Below are positions 15,402-43,843 of a stretch of DNA of 64,000 bases, in pieces. A program made the position numbers and the translations under genes. Source of the stretch: Bryobacterales bacterium. Lineage in GTDB: Bacteria; Acidobacteriota; Terriglobia; Bryobacterales; UBA6623. How positions within the stretch are numbered: the first letter of the stretch is position 1; each line of letters starts with the position of its first letter. A model generated the notes under the pieces. That model worked only from the letters and a program-made list of their open reading frames with translations, had not been told where the DNA came from and ran no database searches. The stretch spans positions 23,327 to 87,326 of the forward strand of contig CBDCYS010000019.1 of NCBI GenBank assembly GCA_965224215.1, in the 5' to 3' direction.

Positions 15402-15502
15402 CGCTCCCTGCCGCGATCCCTGATGTGGAATTGGCCGCCGACGGGTCAGGGAAACCCGCGTTCACCTCGCGCTGGCTAGGCGGCCAATTCCATTCTATTC
15501 AA

Positions 15503-19797: not shown

Positions 19798-20129
19798 GTC
19801 GGGTGATGTCCAGGTTTTGGTTGGAGTTCCCCAAGGCTTTTTTTTAACGCGATGTGCTCGGCCATCAACTCGGCCAGAACTTCATCCTTGGTCTGGATCT
19901 TCTTCTGCAGCCGCTCGATCCGTTCCTGTTCGGGCTGGCGATGGCTGCGGTTCTTAGTCTGGAAGGCAGCGGCTCCATTCTCAAAGAATTCTTTCTGCCA
20001 GCGGTAGAACACCGTCGGCTGCAGCGCCAGCTCGTCGCAGAGCTTCGAGACCGGCTCCTTGTCCACGAGATGCCGCCTCAGGATGGCGACCTTCTCTTCG
20101 GCTGTGTATTGCTTTCGTGCTTTTTTCAT
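19557..20129 (-). CDS. IS3 OrfA (HTH), with a -1 frameshift window (A8 at 19838-19845)
   Basis: RKQYTAEEKVAIL...FYRWQKEF...LKKSLGEL. Confidence 0.9.
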   Translation of the reverse strand: MKKARKQYTAEEKVAILRRHLVDKEPVSKLCDELALQPTVFYRWQKEFFENGAAAFQTKNRSHRQPEQERIERLQKKIQTKDEVLAELMAEHIALKKSLGELQPKPGHHPTCATRSSISCGAGPRRPGSMPGVSSSGSASRPASSIPGADATAASTSTTVGFSGISGSKSGKSRPFSTFIASIRCRATGG

Positions 20130-20190
20130 GCGTTCCCTCCGTTAGCTTAACGGCGGAACGCTGTTCTCCATTTCCAGCTGAGGCGGGACA

Positions 20191-20920
20191 GGAGAAGCAC
20201 CTCGAGACTTTGCTTTCGGTGGTCGATTTCGTGAAGAACCGATGTCGCATTGCCCCTGCATGGCGTGCACTGGAACTCAACCGCGCCGAGTACTCCCCAC
20301 TACAGGACACTCTTGGTCCTGGGTCGATTGCCACCATACTCATCGCACAAGAGATCGAGTATCCCGCATGCGTGGACGACCGCGTTCTAGCTCAGTTCGC
20401 CAGGGAAGTGTTTGGCTTGAGGACCGGTTGGACGCAATGTGTAGTCGCTGCGCTTGAACGAAAGGGCAAGTTGTCCGCAGATCGCTATAGCGAGCTTGTC
20501 GCCTCCCTAGTGCGCATGGGATATGTCTTCGTCCCCGTGAGATCCCAAGACATAATCGCGCTTCTGAAGAAATCACACTACTCACTTACGCCCGATCTCT
20601 TGTCTAGCCTTCGTGCTCTACGTGGACCGGACGTCAATCTACAAGGGGCGGTCAAAGTATCAGCGGGCATAGTCAAAACGGCGCGCAATGATGGGCTGGT
20701 GGTTGCCGAACTGGACCTGCTGACCGATGCTCTCGTAATGGCATTGATGAGCGGACGTGACCGCTCAGTGGCAATCGCAGCGTTTCAAAGCGAACTGGGC
20801 TCGAGTTTGTCAGACCATGACCCATTGAAGAAAAGACTGATCCAGTCACTTTCCCTCCTAGAACTCTGCCTAGGAACCGAGATCAGGGCTCAACCATCGT
20901 CCCCTGGAAAACAACAGTGA
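20191..20920 (+). pseudogene. C-terminal fragment of a large protein ending in a PIN-like domain
   Basis: The open frame starts at the IS3 end. VDDRVLAQFAREVFG...GWTQCVV...YSELVASLVRMGYVFV resembles the PIN domain of TPR-GreAB-C-PIN systems (by eye). Confidence 0.5.
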
Positions 20921-26110: not shown

Positions 26111-27142
26111 TCAGGGATTCAGGATGACCTTCGTCAGATTGGACTCCTTGGCATAGAGGCGGTCGAACATCTCGGCTCCGCGTTCTAGGGGGACAGTCGC
26201 GCTGATGATCGGCTTCACGCGGATCTTGCCTCGTCCCATGAGTTCTAGGCAGGCGGGGTAGTCGTTCGATGACGCGCATGATCCAAGGACGCTAACTTCC
26301 CTGGTCACTACTGATTGCAGCGGAAATTTCACGTCCGGAGCGATGTTGCCGATCAGCGTGACGGTGCCTCCCTTGCGGACGCAGTCGACCGCCATCCGGA
26401 CCGTTGCGTCGGCCCCTACGGCTTCGACGGTGATGTCGGCTCCTAGGCCATTTGTCATCTCGATGACGGCGGCAGGGATGGACTGGTGGCTCGAGTTCAG
26501 GGTGTCGTCAGCGCCCAGTTCCCGGGCTAGAGCGAGGCGGTCGTCTTCCAAATCGACGGCGATGATGCGGCCGCAGCCGGCGGTCCTCAGGGCTTGAATC
26601 GTTAGCAGGCCGATCATGCCCGCGCCGATGACCACGGCGGTGTCGGCGAGTTGGACCGGGGTGCGGTTGACGGCATGAACCGCCACCGAGACGGGCTCGA
26701 CCAGCGCCGCTTCGTCAAACGGCAGGTTGTCCGGGATGCGGTAGACGATGTGCTCGGGGACGGAGACAAATTCGGCGAAGGCGCCGTTGCGGCGGTAGTC
26801 TTCGCACGAGACGCCCAACACACGGCGCTCATCGCACAAGTTAGGTTCGCCGCGACGGCAAAAGCGGCAATGTCCGCAAGAGATCATGGAGTCGAAGGTG
26901 ACACGTTCTCCCGGCCGGAAGCGGGTAGCGGCGTTTCCGATGCTGTCAATGACGCCCGAGGCCTCGTGTCCCATGATGACCGGGGGGATGCGGCGGCCGG
27001 AGCTGCCGTCGAATCCGTGTACGTCGCTGCCGCAGATGCCGCACGATTTGACGCGGATCAGGACTTCGTTGGCGGCTAGTTCGGGGACTGGGGAGTCTTG
27101 GATTTCTAGGAATTTGTAATTTTCTAGGACTAGTGCTTTCAT
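26111..27142 (-). CDS. Zinc-dependent (MDR) sugar-alcohol dehydrogenase
   Basis: CGICGSD, MGHEASG, structural Zn CGHCRFCRRGEPNLC and Rossmann GAGMIG motifs. Confidence 0.93.
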   Translation of the reverse strand: MKALVLENYKFLEIQDSPVPELAANEVLIRVKSCGICGSDVHGFDGSSGRRIPPVIMGHEASGVIDSIGNAATRFRPGERVTFDSMISCGHCRFCRRGEPNLCDERRVLGVSCEDYRRNGAFAEFVSVPEHIVYRIPDNLPFDEAALVEPVSVAVHAVNRTPVQLADTAVVIGAGMIGLLTIQALRTAGCGRIIAVDLEDDRLALARELGADDTLNSSHQSIPAAVIEMTNGLGADITVEAVGADATVRMAVDCVRKGGTVTLIGNIAPDVKFPLQSVVTREVSVLGSCASSNDYPACLELMGRGKIRVKPIISATVPLERGAEMFDRLYAKESNLTKVILNP

Positions 27143-27190
27143 TTGCTTGGGGTGCCTTTGGTCAGTGTAGCTTAGGTGATGGATGGAGAC

Positions 27191-27315
27191 GCTGCCGCTG
27201 AGATGCCGCTACCGCTGCTGAGATGCCGCTGCCGCTATTGCTGAGATGCCGCTATCGCTGAGATGCCGCTGCCGCTGCCGCTCAGATGCCGCTGCCGCTA
27301 TCGCTGAGATGCCGC
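27191..27315. repeat. Degenerate tandem array of GCTGAGATGCC and GCT(G/A)CC units
   Basis: About six (G/C)AGATGCC cores. Confidence 0.85.
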
Positions 27316-27330
27316 GACTTCGATCGCTGA

Positions 27331-27350
27331 GCGTGGACTTCCGTCCACGC
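27331..27350. repeat. REP-like palindrome GCGTGGAC-TTCC-GTCCACGC
   Basis: Perfect 8-bp stem; a related copy with compensatory changes lies at 40744-40763. Confidence 0.8.
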
Positions 27351-27399
27351 CTTCCATGAGGAGGCTCGTCATTGTCAAGGGAGGAGTGAGGAACTTTCA

Positions 27400-27560
27400 G
27401 CTGATGGGATGTTTGACCGGGCTTCCATCCGCACTCGTTGGTCGTCGCTGAGGACGCGGTGCTCTATGAAGTTCGATCTAGCGGCGCTGCTCTCTCTGTC
27501 TCGGCCTCTTCGGACCGGGCGTGGACTCGCAGTCGCCGCGAACTCGGTCTGTCCCTTTGC
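27400..27560 (-). ncRNA. Putative bridge/seek RNA of element A (ends approximate)
   Basis: Guide-like segments: GTCCACGCC (27526-27518), hairpin, GACAG (27500-27496), and ATGGAAG (27428-27422), matching the target and donor junction. Confidence 0.7.
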
Positions 27561-27824
27561 GCTGTTACGATTCCTCAACCTCCTTCAATCCGACGTTCTT
27601 CCTCAACCTCCTTCAATCCGACGTTCCTTTTTGCGCTCGGGGATTTCGCGGCTGACAGCCGCCACACGAGTGGTCGGCAGGCGGCTCGTTCCGGTTATCC
27701 CCTTTCCCTCATATAAGTCCTGCTCTCAGATCGGCCCGGAGCAGTCCAGGGCGCGCCGAGCGCGGCGAAGCGAACCCTGGACGGCGAGGACCGATCTGGA
27801 ATCCTGCCAGCAGAGGGAAAGGGG

Positions 27825-29644
27825 TGTCAACGCCAAGTAGAAATGTCCTAATCGCTGCCAAGTAGAAATGTCCGCTTTGGGGCAGGTGGCTGGAGAGGCG
27901 ATGGTAGAGTGGTTGGCGTTGAGGGCAGGGTCGCGCCTGCTCTTGATGCCCAAGGCCGAAGCGATGGAGCTGGCTCCCAAGCAATCGGCTGAAGCAGACG
28001 ACCCTCTGGCCTCCCGGTCAGAGGGTTTTCTGTTCGTGACAGAGATTGCTTTGGTGAAGCTTCGGAGCGGAGGCCTTGGGCTTCGCCAACGCGACGATCG
28101 CTGGGCGCCGTTTGCCCGGCGCTCCCCATAGCGTCTTGGTTTGGCAGCGACTGCCAACTCAGCGCATCGGCCCGATGGACGCTCCGCATAGCGTCTTGGT
28201 TTGGCAGCGACTCCTAGTCCTGCGTATCGTCTCGCCGAGCGCCGGATGCCTGCGCCGCTTGCCACACAGGCGGGCTGTCTTTCAGATCGAAGTCCTTCAT
28301 CCAGTCGCTGCTTCGCTTGCCGGCAGCTTTGCCGCCAGCCTTCTCGGCTGCTGCCGCAGCGGGTTCCGCCTGGGCGCTCTTGGGCTGCAGGCGCTCCGAT
28401 TGGGGCTGCGCGCCGCAGCGCTTCAGCGCCAGTTCGTGCTTGCCGCAGCGCGCGGCCAGGACGCCGTCCAGGCGTCTCTCCACCCGCACTCGGCTGTTTC
28501 GCAGACCCGGCACAATCGCCTTGCGGTCGATTTGATAGCTCTTTCCCCGGAAGCGAATCGTGTAGTCGTTGGCGACCCGCCGCGTCTCGACCTGGCTCAG
28601 CGCCGAGTCCAGATCGTGCTCGGGACCTAGCTCGCGATGCGCCTCGTCGGGGTGAGCCGGCTGCACCCGCAACGTGGCGTTCCACCAGGGCAGAAACTCG
28701 CTTTCCAGGTAGGCGTTGGCCTGTTCGATCGTCGTGGCCCCGGCCACCCGCAGACCCTTCACCAGGCGGTCCTGGGCGGTGCCAAAGCTGCGCTCGACGC
28801 GGCCTTTGGCCTGCGGCGAATAGGCCGTGATCGATTCGATGTCCAGCTCCTGGAGCGCCCGCCCGATCTGCGTGGGAGGCAAGAGCTTGGGATCCTCGCC
28901 GGCGCTGTTTTTGGGCGTGTTGACAAACAGGCTGGCGCGGTCGGTGTAGAAGGCTACGGGTCGGCCGTTTTGTTCCAGATACGTCTTCAGCAAACGGCGA
29001 TTCTCTTCGCCCGAGTCGTGCCGGACGAAGCGCGCCAGCAACTCGCTGCTGGCGTCGTCGATCATGCCGATCAGGTACAGCTTCTCCCCGCGTCCCTCCA
29101 GCCAGTCGTGCTCGGAGGTGTCCCATTGCACCAGCTCGCCGCGGCAACTGCGGCGGGGCCGCCACGGATGCGGGCGTCCTGACTTGCGGCGGCGGGGCTT
29201 CCACAGGCCCGCGGCGGCCATCCAGCCCCGCAGCGTTTCGCGGCCGACTTGGACGCCGTGGCGCTGCTCGAGATACTCCGCCGCCAGAGTCGGGCCAAAG
29301 CCGGCGTAGACGGGTTGGGAGAGGATTGCCACGGCTTGTTTTTCCGCCTTGGCGCTGAGCTTGCGGTTGGACGCGCGGCCCCGCGCGGCATGGACCACGG
29401 CCTGGTCGCCTTCGCTGCGAAGCTTCGCCAGCAGCCGCCTCAGATGCCGTTCGCTGAGGCCCGTCTGCTGGGCGGCCTGCTTTTGCGTGATGAGTTTTTT
29501 GTCTGCTTTGCGCAGCGCCACCAGCCGGTCGCGCTCTCGTTGTGTCATTAGTAGTTGTCCTTGCTTGCTCACCCCTCCAGGCTGACCTTGTCAATAGGAC
29601 ATTTCTACTTGGCACGTTTAGGACATTATCACTCGGCAGCGACA
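27825..29644 (-). mobile_element. ISNCY/IS1202-type element with a 17-bp TSD
   Basis: TGT...ACA ends with repeated CCAAGTAGAAATGTCC motifs; TSD CAGCAGAGGGAAAGGGG at 27808-27824 and 29645-29661. Confidence 0.92.
28214..29572 (-). CDS. ISNCY/IS1202-type DDE transposase
   Basis: HTH N-terminus; GELVQWDTSEH, FYTDRASLF and PQAKGRVERSFGTAQDRL motifs. Confidence 0.93.
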   Translation of the reverse strand: MSKQGQLLMTQRERDRLVALRKADKKLITQKQAAQQTGLSERHLRRLLAKLRSEGDQAVVHAARGRASNRKLSAKAEKQAVAILSQPVYAGFGPTLAAEYLEQRHGVQVGRETLRGWMAAAGLWKPRRRKSGRPHPWRPRRSCRGELVQWDTSEHDWLEGRGEKLYLIGMIDDASSELLARFVRHDSGEENRRLLKTYLEQNGRPVAFYTDRASLFVNTPKNSAGEDPKLLPPTQIGRALQELDIESITAYSPQAKGRVERSFGTAQDRLVKGLRVAGATTIEQANAYLESEFLPWWNATLRVQPAHPDEAHRELGPEHDLDSALSQVETRRVANDYTIRFRGKSYQIDRKAIVPGLRNSRVRVERRLDGVLAARCGKHELALKRCGAQPQSERLQPKSAQAEPAAAAAEKAGGKAAGKRSSDWMKDFDLKDSPPVWQAAQASGARRDDTQD

Positions 29645-40719: not shown

Positions 40720-40743
40720 AAAAGTTCGCTAGGAACAACAGAG

Positions 40744-40763
40744 GCGCGGACGGAAGTCCGCGC
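40744..40763. repeat. REP-like palindrome (reverse copy GCGCGGAC-TTCC-GTCCGCGC), possible terminator
   Basis: Same family as 27331-27350; 25 bp after a stop codon. Confidence 0.75.
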
Positions 40764-40784
40764 TCCGCGGCGTAGAAGGCGGTT

Positions 40785-42949: not shown

Positions 42950-43843
42950 GTGGCCCCGTTTGGCGGCGCCGTGGCCTACAAAGGATGGCCCGTTTTTCGC
43001 ATCGATGACTTCATGAGTCAAGTAGCCACGATGGACAGCCGGATCGCACAGATCGAGCAGTTGATCGAAGAGGGAGAGAAGTTCACGCCTCAGAACTTCT
43101 GCTATCCCACCGAGCACGGAAGTGAGTTTGGCGGTGGAGACACGCCCGAATGGCTCGCTTGGAAGACTCGCGTGTTCAACCTCGCCAAGAGTCTCGGCTC
43201 AGATGGTTCGCCGGCACTCAAGCTCGCCACTACCGCCCTGGGCGTAAGGACCGACGGCTACCACCTCATCCAGTTCGAACGCGCGCTCGGGTCTTTGAAG
43301 ATGGCGCTAGACCTACTCCTGTCCGCGACCAAAGACGACGCCTATGGCGAGCTCCGACAGACGACGTCACGAAGCGCAATACCTACGCTTTCGAACAGAG
43401 TGTTCGTGGTGCATGGGCATGACAGCGCCCTAAAAACCGACGTCGAGAGGTTCTTGCACCAAATCGGATTAGATCCTGTCGTGCTCCACCGCCAGCCAGA
43501 CCAAGGGCAGACGCTCATTGAGAAGTTTGAGCAGCACAGCGATGTCGGATACGCCATCATACTTCTGACGCCGGACGAGTTCGCCTACACCGCCGACAAA
43601 AAAACACTACCGGCCGAGCAGAGAGCGACCGAATCGCGAGCACGGCCAAACGTCATCTTCGAGTTTGGATACTTCGTCGGCAGATTGGGACGGAAACGAG
43701 TGTGCTGCTTGCATAAGGGCGATGTCGTCTTGCCGAGTGATCTGCACGGACTCCTGTACAAGAAGGTCGATGACTCCCTAGACAGCCAGGCGTACGGGCT
43801 CATTCGTGAGCTAAAGAGTGCAGGTTACCAGCTCAAGATCTGA
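42950..43843 (+). CDS. TIR-like nucleotide-binding domain protein (CAP12/Pycsar-effector-type TIR)
   Basis: NRVFVVHGHD...IEKFE...AIILLTPD...RARPNVIFEFGYF...PSDLHGL. The real start may be an ATG near 43013-43031. Confidence 0.88.
   Translation: MAPFGGAVAYKGWPVFRIDDFMSQVATMDSRIAQIEQLIEEGEKFTPQNFCYPTEHGSEFGGGDTPEWLAWKTRVFNLAKSLGSDGSPALKLATTALGVRTDGYHLIQFERALGSLKMALDLLLSATKDDAYGELRQTTSRSAIPTLSNRVFVVHGHDSALKTDVERFLHQIGLDPVVLHRQPDQGQTLIEKFEQHSDVGYAIILLTPDEFAYTADKKTLPAEQRATESRARPNVIFEFGYFVGRLGRKRVCCLHKGDVVLPSDLHGLLYKKVDDSLDSQAYGLIRELKSAGYQLKI

Follow-up and report, generated by a model that had tools for sequence, protein, structure and literature searches.

An IS1111-type element with a predicted guide RNA at REP-like hairpins in a Bryobacterales genome

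Organisation of the locus

The DNA analysed, hereafter the window, is a stretch of 64,000 nucleotides from contig 19 of the genome assembly of a Bryobacterales bacterium (8.61 Mb, 79 contigs, 59% G+C). It carries an insertion sequence, called element A, which is split by two nested ISs, as revealed by a BLAST search of positions 27000-36500 against the genome. The BLAST extents of its parts are 27329-27824, 29645-30811 and 32603-32730, and Table 1 gives the features recognised in and around them. The window copy is dead, because IS-Y cuts the transposase gene after its first codons. Both nested ISs, IS-X and IS-Y, are about 1.8 kb long and present in dozens of copies each in the genome. An apparent operon of 656-aa and 524-aa ORFs with the transposase was discarded: BLAST, and Pfam searches of the other frames, showed these to be spurious frames, without a family match, lying over the nested ISs.

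The right end of element A adjoins a hairpin. Its 24-nt pattern has two matches in the window, both with 0 mismatches, at 27329-27352 (plus strand) and 40742-40765 (minus strand), and none in 100 dinucleotide-preserving shuffles. Both sites consist of an 8-bp stem and a 4-nt loop, and both fall between ORFs. Folded as DNA, the first reaches −9.8 kcal/mol (z −5.0) and the second −11.9 kcal/mol (z −3.0); the second keeps its stem because its T>C/A>G change is a paired one. An earlier note on this DNA had pointed out the palindrome next to element A, a second family member with these compensatory changes, and the fact that this second site is unoccupied and departs from the guide at one position. 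All of this was borne out, the guide mismatch being at 40747 (C, where T is needed); the second unit also has one mismatch to the 7-nt left guide described below. The same note had the hairpin abutting the element. The two are indeed adjacent, but the inverted repeat does not touch the stem, as the core (27351-27352) and three further bases (27353-27355) intervene. The hairpin was also considered as a terminator and rejected as such: it lacks a T run, its copies occur in both orientations, and its flank is conserved. On the side away from the element it is adjoined by tandem repeats of about 20 nt (27180-27320), which separate it from the start of a zinc-type alcohol dehydrogenase gene (26111-27142, minus strand).

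Table 1. Features of element A, its predicted RNA and the hairpin units. Positions are those of the window unless a contig is named.
Feature	Position	Strand	Remarks
REP-like hairpin unit, right part	27329..27352	+	stem arms 27331-27338 and 27343-27350; loop 27339-27342
Right-hand core copy (CT)	27351-27352	+	last two bases of hairpin unit 27329..27352
Right end of element A	27353..27372	-	3-nt extension 27353-27355; 17-bp subterminal inverted repeat 27356-27372
Predicted seekRNA / bridge RNA	27413..27540	-	two stem/internal-loop modules; covarying fold
Donor module (predicted)	27415-27476	-	right-donor guide 27466-27470 (UUCAU); left-donor guide and core 27422-27428 (AUGGAAG)
Invariant CC	27420-27421	-	in donor module
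Target module (predicted)	27481-27540	-	right- and left-target guides
Left-target guide (predicted), 7-mer GACAGAG	27494-27500	-	3' strand of the target loop; identical to left flank and core
Right-target guide (predicted), 9-mer	27518-27526	-	target module, 5' strand of the loop
Rest of non-coding tail up to nested IS	27565..27824	-	includes 27-28-nt tandem repeats
Nested IS-X, foreign to element A	27825..29644	-	ORF 28214-29572, rve and HTH domains
End of element A tail and most of transposase gene	29645..30811	-	stop codon 29706-29708
Nested IS-Y, foreign to element A	30812..32602 (30811-32603 by BLAST)	+	ORF 30950-32386, DDE_Tnp_1_4
Left end of element A	32603..32723	-	transposase gene start; inverted repeat 32702-32718; 5-nt extension 32719-32723
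Left-hand core copy and conserved left flank of the split unit	32724..32770	-	core 32724-32725; ACAG 32726-32729
Second REP unit, unoccupied	40738..40765	+	would-be transposase strand on +
Parts of second unit		+	ACAG 40738-40741; core AG 40742-40743; hairpin 40744-40763
RAYT-like ORF	C68:92529-93110		Pfam Y1_Tnp 25.3 bits; NCBIfam REP_Tyr_transpos 22.6 bits
RAYT-like ORF	C58:140307-140873		Pfam Y1_Tnp 29.7 bits; NCBIfam REP_Tyr_transpos 20.8 bits

Element A is of the IS1111 type

An intact copy of element A, found on contig 21 (locus L013), is 1,792 bp long and has perfect 17-bp subterminal inverted repeats. Outside the left repeat lie 5 element bases and the 2-nt core (7 nt), and outside the right repeat 3 bases. 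It encodes a transposase of 368 aa, and about 570 nt of non-coding DNA, the tail, separate the stop codon from the right tip. Genome-wide, some 32 copies keep an open frame of 370 codons. The transposase of the intact copy scored 199 bits with NCBIfam NF033542, 'IS110 family RNA-guided transposase' (cut-off 140), and the serine motif G--P----SG, as given in PMC11187229, is readable in it. In the window, the ORF at 29706-30908 (minus strand) matched Pfam PF01548 (DEDD_Tnp_IS110, 57.9 bits) and PF02371 (Transposase_20, 49.4 bits). The marks of the IS1111 group are described in PMC11187229 and PMC11208160. The extensions of 7 or 6 nt on the left and 3 nt on the right were found at 40 left and 38 right ends, the long non-coding region is present downstream of the transposase gene, and an RNA with short matches to both target strands could be recognised computationally (see below). 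Element A is accordingly assigned to the IS1111 type within the IS110 family; it shows every defining feature of the group that a sequence can reveal.

Homologues of the A transposase, 41-83% identical to it, were found in 28 of the 201 genomes searched in the same order; among named records, three Bryobacterales MAGs have one. Sequencing runs of 7 studies, some of them labelled sponge metagenome, contain 0.7-0.8 of the sampled words of region 27300-27830, and in metatranscriptome runs of 2 studies this share was 0.20-0.29. Within the tail, the 27-28-nt tandem repeats (window 27565-27640) vary in number between copies, through indels of 26-28 nt. Further on, a stretch of about 40 nt (window ~27761-27802, L013 689-730) overlaps a palindrome and was covered, in contigs of four runs, about 100 times more deeply than the rest (depth 155-561 in RNA libraries, 2,229 in the DNA run). 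Given this excess it looks like a separate short repeat, widespread in the samples.

The hairpin belongs to a probable REP family

Genome-wide, the 24-nt pattern has 69 exact matches, 128 at no more than one mismatch, 165 at no more than two and 226 at no more than four. The 12-nt loop core, with at most one mismatch, occurs at 268 sites, of which 142 have 8/8 stem pairs and 62 have 7/8; these 204 hairpins with at least 7/8 stem pairs were taken as the working set. The genome scan that the earlier note had called for found the palindrome to be abundant, not rare (204 well-paired copies). In this set 36 hairpins are occupied by element A and 168 are not, which is the count of occupied and empty sites that had been asked for. 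Variants in the stem are mostly compensated among the genome-wide copies. In most of the 168 empty units the left flank is conserved over about 25 nt, the last four of them ACAG, and AG and the stem follow without interruption. In the logo of these 168 units the unpaired ACAG (CTGT on the other strand) is conserved, and neither GTAG nor CGTC, the tags that mark REP super-families (PMC3733652), is present. Past the far side of many hairpins of the source genome lies a conserved stretch of about 23 nt, and its reverse complement lies before others, which points to a composite repeat of larger size, or to a further element with inverted hairpins at its borders.

Among 77 genomes from this bacterial family, 17 have the hairpin core, and they represent 7 of 12 genera. 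Counts went up to 156, 146, 133 and 112, against 0-1 for a reversed-pattern control, and copies are often arranged as inverted pairs 53 nt apart. Three of the hairpin-bearing genomes, with 112, 66 and 27 matches (G062, G142 and G038), have no homologue of the A transposase at E <= 1e-60; the repeat is therefore independent of element A. As to its position relative to genes, stop-free frames of 250 codons or more run across 44 of the 168 empty hairpins (26%), compared to 72% of the genome, and those of 150 codons or more across 90 of the 168, compared to 87%; such frames are a crude proxy for genes.

With its short imperfect palindrome, high copy number and compensated stem variants, the hairpin repeat has, in these respects, what is expected of a REP. 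We conclude that it is most likely a REP family, common to several genera of the same bacterial family. The literature searched, which included PMC3733652 and PMC12306157, contained no REP family of this kind in Acidobacteriota, and no description of a REP-targeting IS or of a REP/RAYT pair in this phylum. The proposal of a new REP family stands as far as the family is concerned; its newness is relative to the literature searched, which gives no proof of absence.

RAYT-like genes beside hairpins

A genome scan with Pfam Y1_Tnp returned an IS200-like gene, in about 41 copies, as well as some divergent genes that occur singly. Two of these single genes are full-length RAYT-like paralogues of 193 and 188 aa, 73-75% identical, with an HUH-like motif and located beside hairpins (Table 1). 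Both pass the Pfam Y1_Tnp cut-off (23 bits) and stay far under that of the NCBIfam REP-associated tyrosine transposase, REP_Tyr_transpos (80 bits). Around the gene on contig 68, hairpins are found at 92340(-), 93116(-) and 93344(+), and next to one of the two paralogues element A has inserted in the neighbouring repeat unit. Homologues with at least 65% identity exist in 9 other genomes of the family, 8 of which have the hairpin. One of them (G001, 110802-111356) lies between inverted hairpins at 110744(-) and 111368(+), and so do two copies of the gene in another genome (G030). Candidates for the RAYT gene that the earlier note had proposed to look for are these two paralogous HUH/Y1 ORFs adjoining hairpins, with close relatives elsewhere flanked by inverted hairpins. 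We propose that the REP family was probably spread by divergent RAYT-like Y1 transposases.

The multi-copy Y1 transposase, with its ~41 near-identical copies, was also considered as a RAYT and rejected. Among the copies listed, 2 had a hairpin within 1.5 kb, and with so few hairpins nearby the gene is taken to be that of an ordinary IS200-like element. Its copies are frames of 165 codons, unassociated with hairpins.

Element A splits the repeat unit at a 2-nt core

Probes for the element ends detected 40 left and 38 right junctions of element A genome-wide. Each of the 38 right junctions shows the right repeat followed by 3 bases, AG and the hairpin, and the insertion orientation was the same in all of them; no right end was found away from the palindrome. 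At the left junctions, AG precedes the element in 40 of 40 cases and ACAGAG in 33 of 40. The left-end flanks are the left flanks of the empty units, from which it follows that the element splits the unit between flank and hairpin. The core AG (CT on the plus strand of the window) is present on both sides of element A, as one duplicated core of 2 nt.

A predicted guide RNA in the non-coding tail

The 9-mer that the earlier note had singled out as a putative guide has its reverse complement at 27518-27526 on the plus strand; read as RNA, it belongs to the minus strand, and it complements the final base of the core together with the 8-nt stem arm next to the element. Many related elements share a scaffold motif in the tail, with a variable 9-mer directly after it. 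We collected the 19 related loci that hold both the scaffold and the right end, and scored each 9-mer, by eye, against the reverse complement of the core base and the first 8 flank bases. Among these 19 loci there are 16 different 9-mers. The match was 9/9 at 10 loci, 8/9 at 4 (one of them shifted by a base), 7/9 at 3 and 6/9 at 1, and was absent at 1, the analytic probability of 8/9 or better at any of 3 offsets being 3e-4 per locus. A relative from another genus, with a protein only 51% identical, has the same 9-mer and the same stem beside the element. At three loci (L025, L031 and L032) related copies stand beside flanks unlike the guide; one of these is the non-matching locus, and two are in one genome. 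These copies may have been rearranged.

An alignment of 13 related tails gave a consensus fold of two modules, each with an internal loop between its outer and its inner stem, in which 95.6% of the cells are paired. Both sides change in 14 of its 28 pairs, compared to 6.5 +/- 1.6 in shuffles, none of 500 of which was as high, and compared to 2-5 when the partners are slid. The G-U pairs fit the transposase strand only. Folding of the single sequence produced the same two modules, weakly better than shuffles (z = −1.77, 13 of 200 as good). The 9-mer of element A is located in a loop of this covarying fold, and relatives' 9-mers match their own flanks; the guide put forward from the sequence of the window is well supported in this respect.

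On the other strand of the target loop, the stretch corresponding to the left-target guide equals the element's own left flank and core in most relatives, when the 13-tail alignment is compared to the element ends. The left guide was placed on this 3' strand because it is the strand that co-varies in relatives; another candidate, at 27546-27553, upstream of the scaffold and resembling the left flank, was rejected as its position shows no co-variation in relatives. In the donor module, 5 nt of the 5' strand are complementary to the left tip of the element, and 7 nt of the 3' strand are identical to the right tip and core. Three relatives in which a right-tip base or left-tip bases are altered have donor guides that differ accordingly. 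In IS1111 seekRNAs, the segment complementary to the top strand comes first (PMC11187229), and this is the order of the guides in element A.

Rfam gave no match to the tail at gathering scores, and at E <= 1 the intact copy returned a chance microRNA match alone. At low depth, contigs from the RNA libraries of two studies extend over the tail (L013 201-499); contigs of this sort do not show transcription, and the parts of the element that they leave uncovered carry no information. Contigs of four sequencing runs contained no joints of element A, be it circle junctions or empty sites, though RNA ends and circles are beyond what contigs can reveal.

Selectivity among genomic hairpins

Occupied and empty hairpins differ at stem position 5, the very position that distinguishes the two window sites. 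It is T in 36 of 36 occupied sites, and T in 106, C in 59 and G in 3 of the empty ones (p = 1e-6). With respect to the guide, 28 of the 36 occupied sites match at 9/9 and the other 8 at 8/9, and the 168 empty sites range from 9/9 (67 sites) down to 4/9. A 9/9 match together with the full ACAG-AG context is found at 40 of the 168. Many landing sites, as the earlier note had supposed, are therefore available, with 67 empty full guide matches; that they are safe is judged by the crude open-frame proxy alone.

The first base after the core behaves differently. Seven occupied sites have C for G there, which is a guide mismatch, and in 7/7 the stem partner is uncompensated. Hairpins in which this stem base is a compensated C/G were occupied in 0 of 15 cases, versus 7 of 13 for uncompensated C (p = 0.0014). 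The compensated C/G class flanks the RAYT-like gene on contig 68. Its 0/15 occupancy is left unexplained by the guides. An alignment inspected by eye gave no clear pattern between element A subfamily and hairpin variant. Hairpins with C after the core were occupied more often (7/13) than guide-perfect ones (28/106), despite the guide mismatch.

Related elements offer a hint here. Of 24 related loci, 15 have CC as the two target bases that follow the core, and an invariant CC (27421-27420) follows the left-donor guide in 13 of 13 species. In IS621, insertion is favoured by a handshake guide of the donor loop, which base-pairs with the target once exchange has taken place (PMC13626964). If the CC acted as a handshake guide, this would account, in part, for the CC at 15/24 loci and for the higher occupancy of C hairpins, though not for the empty C/G class. 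A joint reading would be that, on the strand where the core is CT, the RNA corresponds part by part to the IS621 bridge RNA, with CC as its handshake guide, that the repeat and its genes are the first REP/RAYT lineage to be described in Acidobacteriota, and that the RAYT-proximal sub-class of hairpins is either refractory to insertion or too young to have received any. We regard this combination as tentative, and rather doubtful as a whole.

Proposed mechanism and alternative explanations

The anatomy of the element, the split units, the adjacency of right ends and hairpins, the covariation of the fold, the co-variation of guides and flanks, and the bias among occupied sites are the observations on which we base our interpretation. 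Element A very probably uses a seekRNA/bridge RNA, encoded in its 3' tail, to direct its DEDD/serine recombinase to the REP-like unit. One RNA loop would carry the two target guides, the 9-mer pairing with the stem arm near the insertion point and one core base, and the 7-mer of the loop's other strand being identical to the left flank and core of the unit. The second loop would carry a further two guides, directed at the joined ends of the element itself. Recombination at the 2-nt core (CT on the plus strand, AG on the transposase strand) would then place the element between flank and hairpin, the core being duplicated on insertion. By homology to ISEc11, ISPa11 and IS621, the RNA would be made and bound by the transposase, the intermediate would be circular, and the order of strand exchange would be as in those elements.

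Before 2024, IS1111 elements were thought to reach REPs and attC sites through recognition by the protein, and the transposase of element A could in the same way recognise the shape or sequence of the hairpin by itself, the 9-mer being coincidental or a side effect. Such recognition would suit the strength of the target hairpin, the fact that several related elements also adjoin palindromes, and the guide mismatch at 8 of the 36 occupied sites. It would leave aside, however, that the 9-mer follows the right flank (at least 8/9) in 14 of 19 related loci, some with non-palindromic flanks, and that its place is a loop of the covariation-supported fold. In addition, four IS1111 members, the REP-targeting ISPa11 among them, have been shown to require their seekRNA and to be open to reprogramming through it (PMC11187229). 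We consider protein recognition very unlikely. A slightly smaller probability is given to the idea that the hairpin is a terminal structure of element A, and the 'empty' hairpins solo remnants or miniature derivatives of it. Every right end does have a hairpin, BLAST alignments between copies start at the hairpin, and uncommon hairpin variants are over-represented at occupied sites, with a loop variant in 6 of 38 of them versus 7 of 168 empty ones (p = 0.017). Nevertheless, the empty units are continuous with the conserved left flank, which in occupied units lies detached at the other end of the element, hairpins vary beside near-identical elements, genomes with 27-112 hairpins have no A-transposase homologue (E <= 1e-60), and hairpins flank RAYT-like genes.

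A variant of the RNA-guided scheme arises from the symmetry of the target: in a palindrome, the far arm, on the other strand, is a second potential partner of the 9-mer (8/9). The guide might then read that far arm, or either arm of an extruded hairpin, which would make sense of the first base after the core, a guide mismatch in 7 of 38 occupied sites. Its stem partner is a guide-compatible C or T in 37 of 38, and, the constant end position aside, no occupied site is without a perfectly matching arm. The occupancy data alone do not separate the near from the far arm. On the other hand, related elements with non-palindromic targets pair their guide with the bases directly after the core, and insertion has a fixed position and a fixed orientation, on the near side. 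It is only through homology with these elements of non-palindromic targets that the near arm is favoured; reading of the far arm or of an extruded hairpin appears unlikely, with a low probability in our estimate. We thus keep pairing of the 9-mer with the near arm as the preferred reading.

Relation to known systems

Earlier work on REP targeting reportedly includes that on IS621 and ISPpu10 and a study of Tobes and Pareja in 2006. RNA-guided ISs aimed at REP hairpins are already known from other bacteria, such as ISPa11 and IS621. REP targeting by IS110/IS1111 elements is established, ISPa11 being described in PMC11187229, and their guidance by RNA has been known since 2024 (PMC11187229, PMC11208160). 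The statement of the earlier note that IS621 and ISPa11 target REPs agrees with the literature (PMC11187229, PMC13626964).

ISPa11, an IS1111 family member of Pseudomonas aeruginosa, resembles element A, according to its description in PMC11187229, in its subterminal inverted repeats, in a seekRNA downstream of the gene for the transposase, in strand-matching segments placed in the same order, and in a fixed place in the REP. Compared by description, the two differ in host phylum (Acidobacteriota, order Bryobacterales, for element A), REP sequence and guides. The inverted repeats of element A, at 17 bp, are longer than the 'usually 11-13 bp' of PMC11187229 and within the 7-17 bp range of PMC11208160. 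IS621, an element of the IS110 group from E. coli, shares with element A a REP target and a CT core (plus strand reading). Its bridge RNA has a target and a donor loop with a left and a right guide each (PMC13626964, PMC11208160), and the guides of element A, in the plus strand reading, are in the IS621 order. Unlike element A, IS621 is described as lacking long subterminal repeats, and its RNA as placed upstream of the gene, within the left end; in element A, unlike IS621, gene and RNA are on the strand opposite to the CT-core frame. ISPpu9 and ISPpu10 of Pseudomonas putida are, by their descriptions, likewise IS110-family occupants of REPs (PMC12288879 for ISPpu9), and ISPpu9 has a small RNA gene downstream of its transposase gene (PMC12288879).

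The repeat itself shares with the Proteobacterial REP/RAYT systems (REPtrons) a short imperfect palindrome, hundreds of copies, depletion from long open frames (by the crude proxy), and Y1/HUH transposase genes, some of them flanked by inverted copies. It is unlike them in the lack of a GTAG tag and in its Y1 proteins, which score 21-23 bits against an NCBIfam cut-off of 80. A 2013 survey described the tyrosine transposases of Acidobacteria as flanked by long inverted repeats, and not by REPs (PMC3733652).

Steering of element A by its own RNA into a repeat that seems to lie mostly outside genes, with 67 fully matching sites still free, would explain how about 40 copies are carried at low cost in an IS-crowded genome of 8.6 Mb. 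The value for the field is comparative more than conceptual. A single order offers a graded IS1111-type series, with transposase identity from 41% to 83% and guides naturally reprogrammed to at least 16 sequences, across which scaffold, tips and donor guides are fixed or change in step. This series represents ready data from which to derive pairing rules, including a possible handshake dinucleotide, in the IS1111 branch of bridge recombinases, which has been less studied. REP-like repeats with RAYT-like genes are also extended to Acidobacteriota.

Other features of the window

A second IS1111-type element, 'B', occupies 32757-35868. Its transposase gene (34505-35764, minus strand) scored 196 bits with the NCBIfam IS110 RNA-guided transposase model, and the element is split by a Mutator-family IS (ORF 33385-34296). 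The right tip of element B, near 32783, is about 50 nt from the left end of element A and adjoins a different motif, similar to the one targeted by a related element of another genome. Elsewhere in the window, an ORF with a PIN domain of the TPR-GreAB-C-PIN system was found at 20117-20920, and one with a CAP12/Pycsar-type TIR effector domain at 42950-43843. An Rfam int-alpA RNA match (15418-15486, 39.4 bits) lies beside an island rich in ORFs without assigned function.
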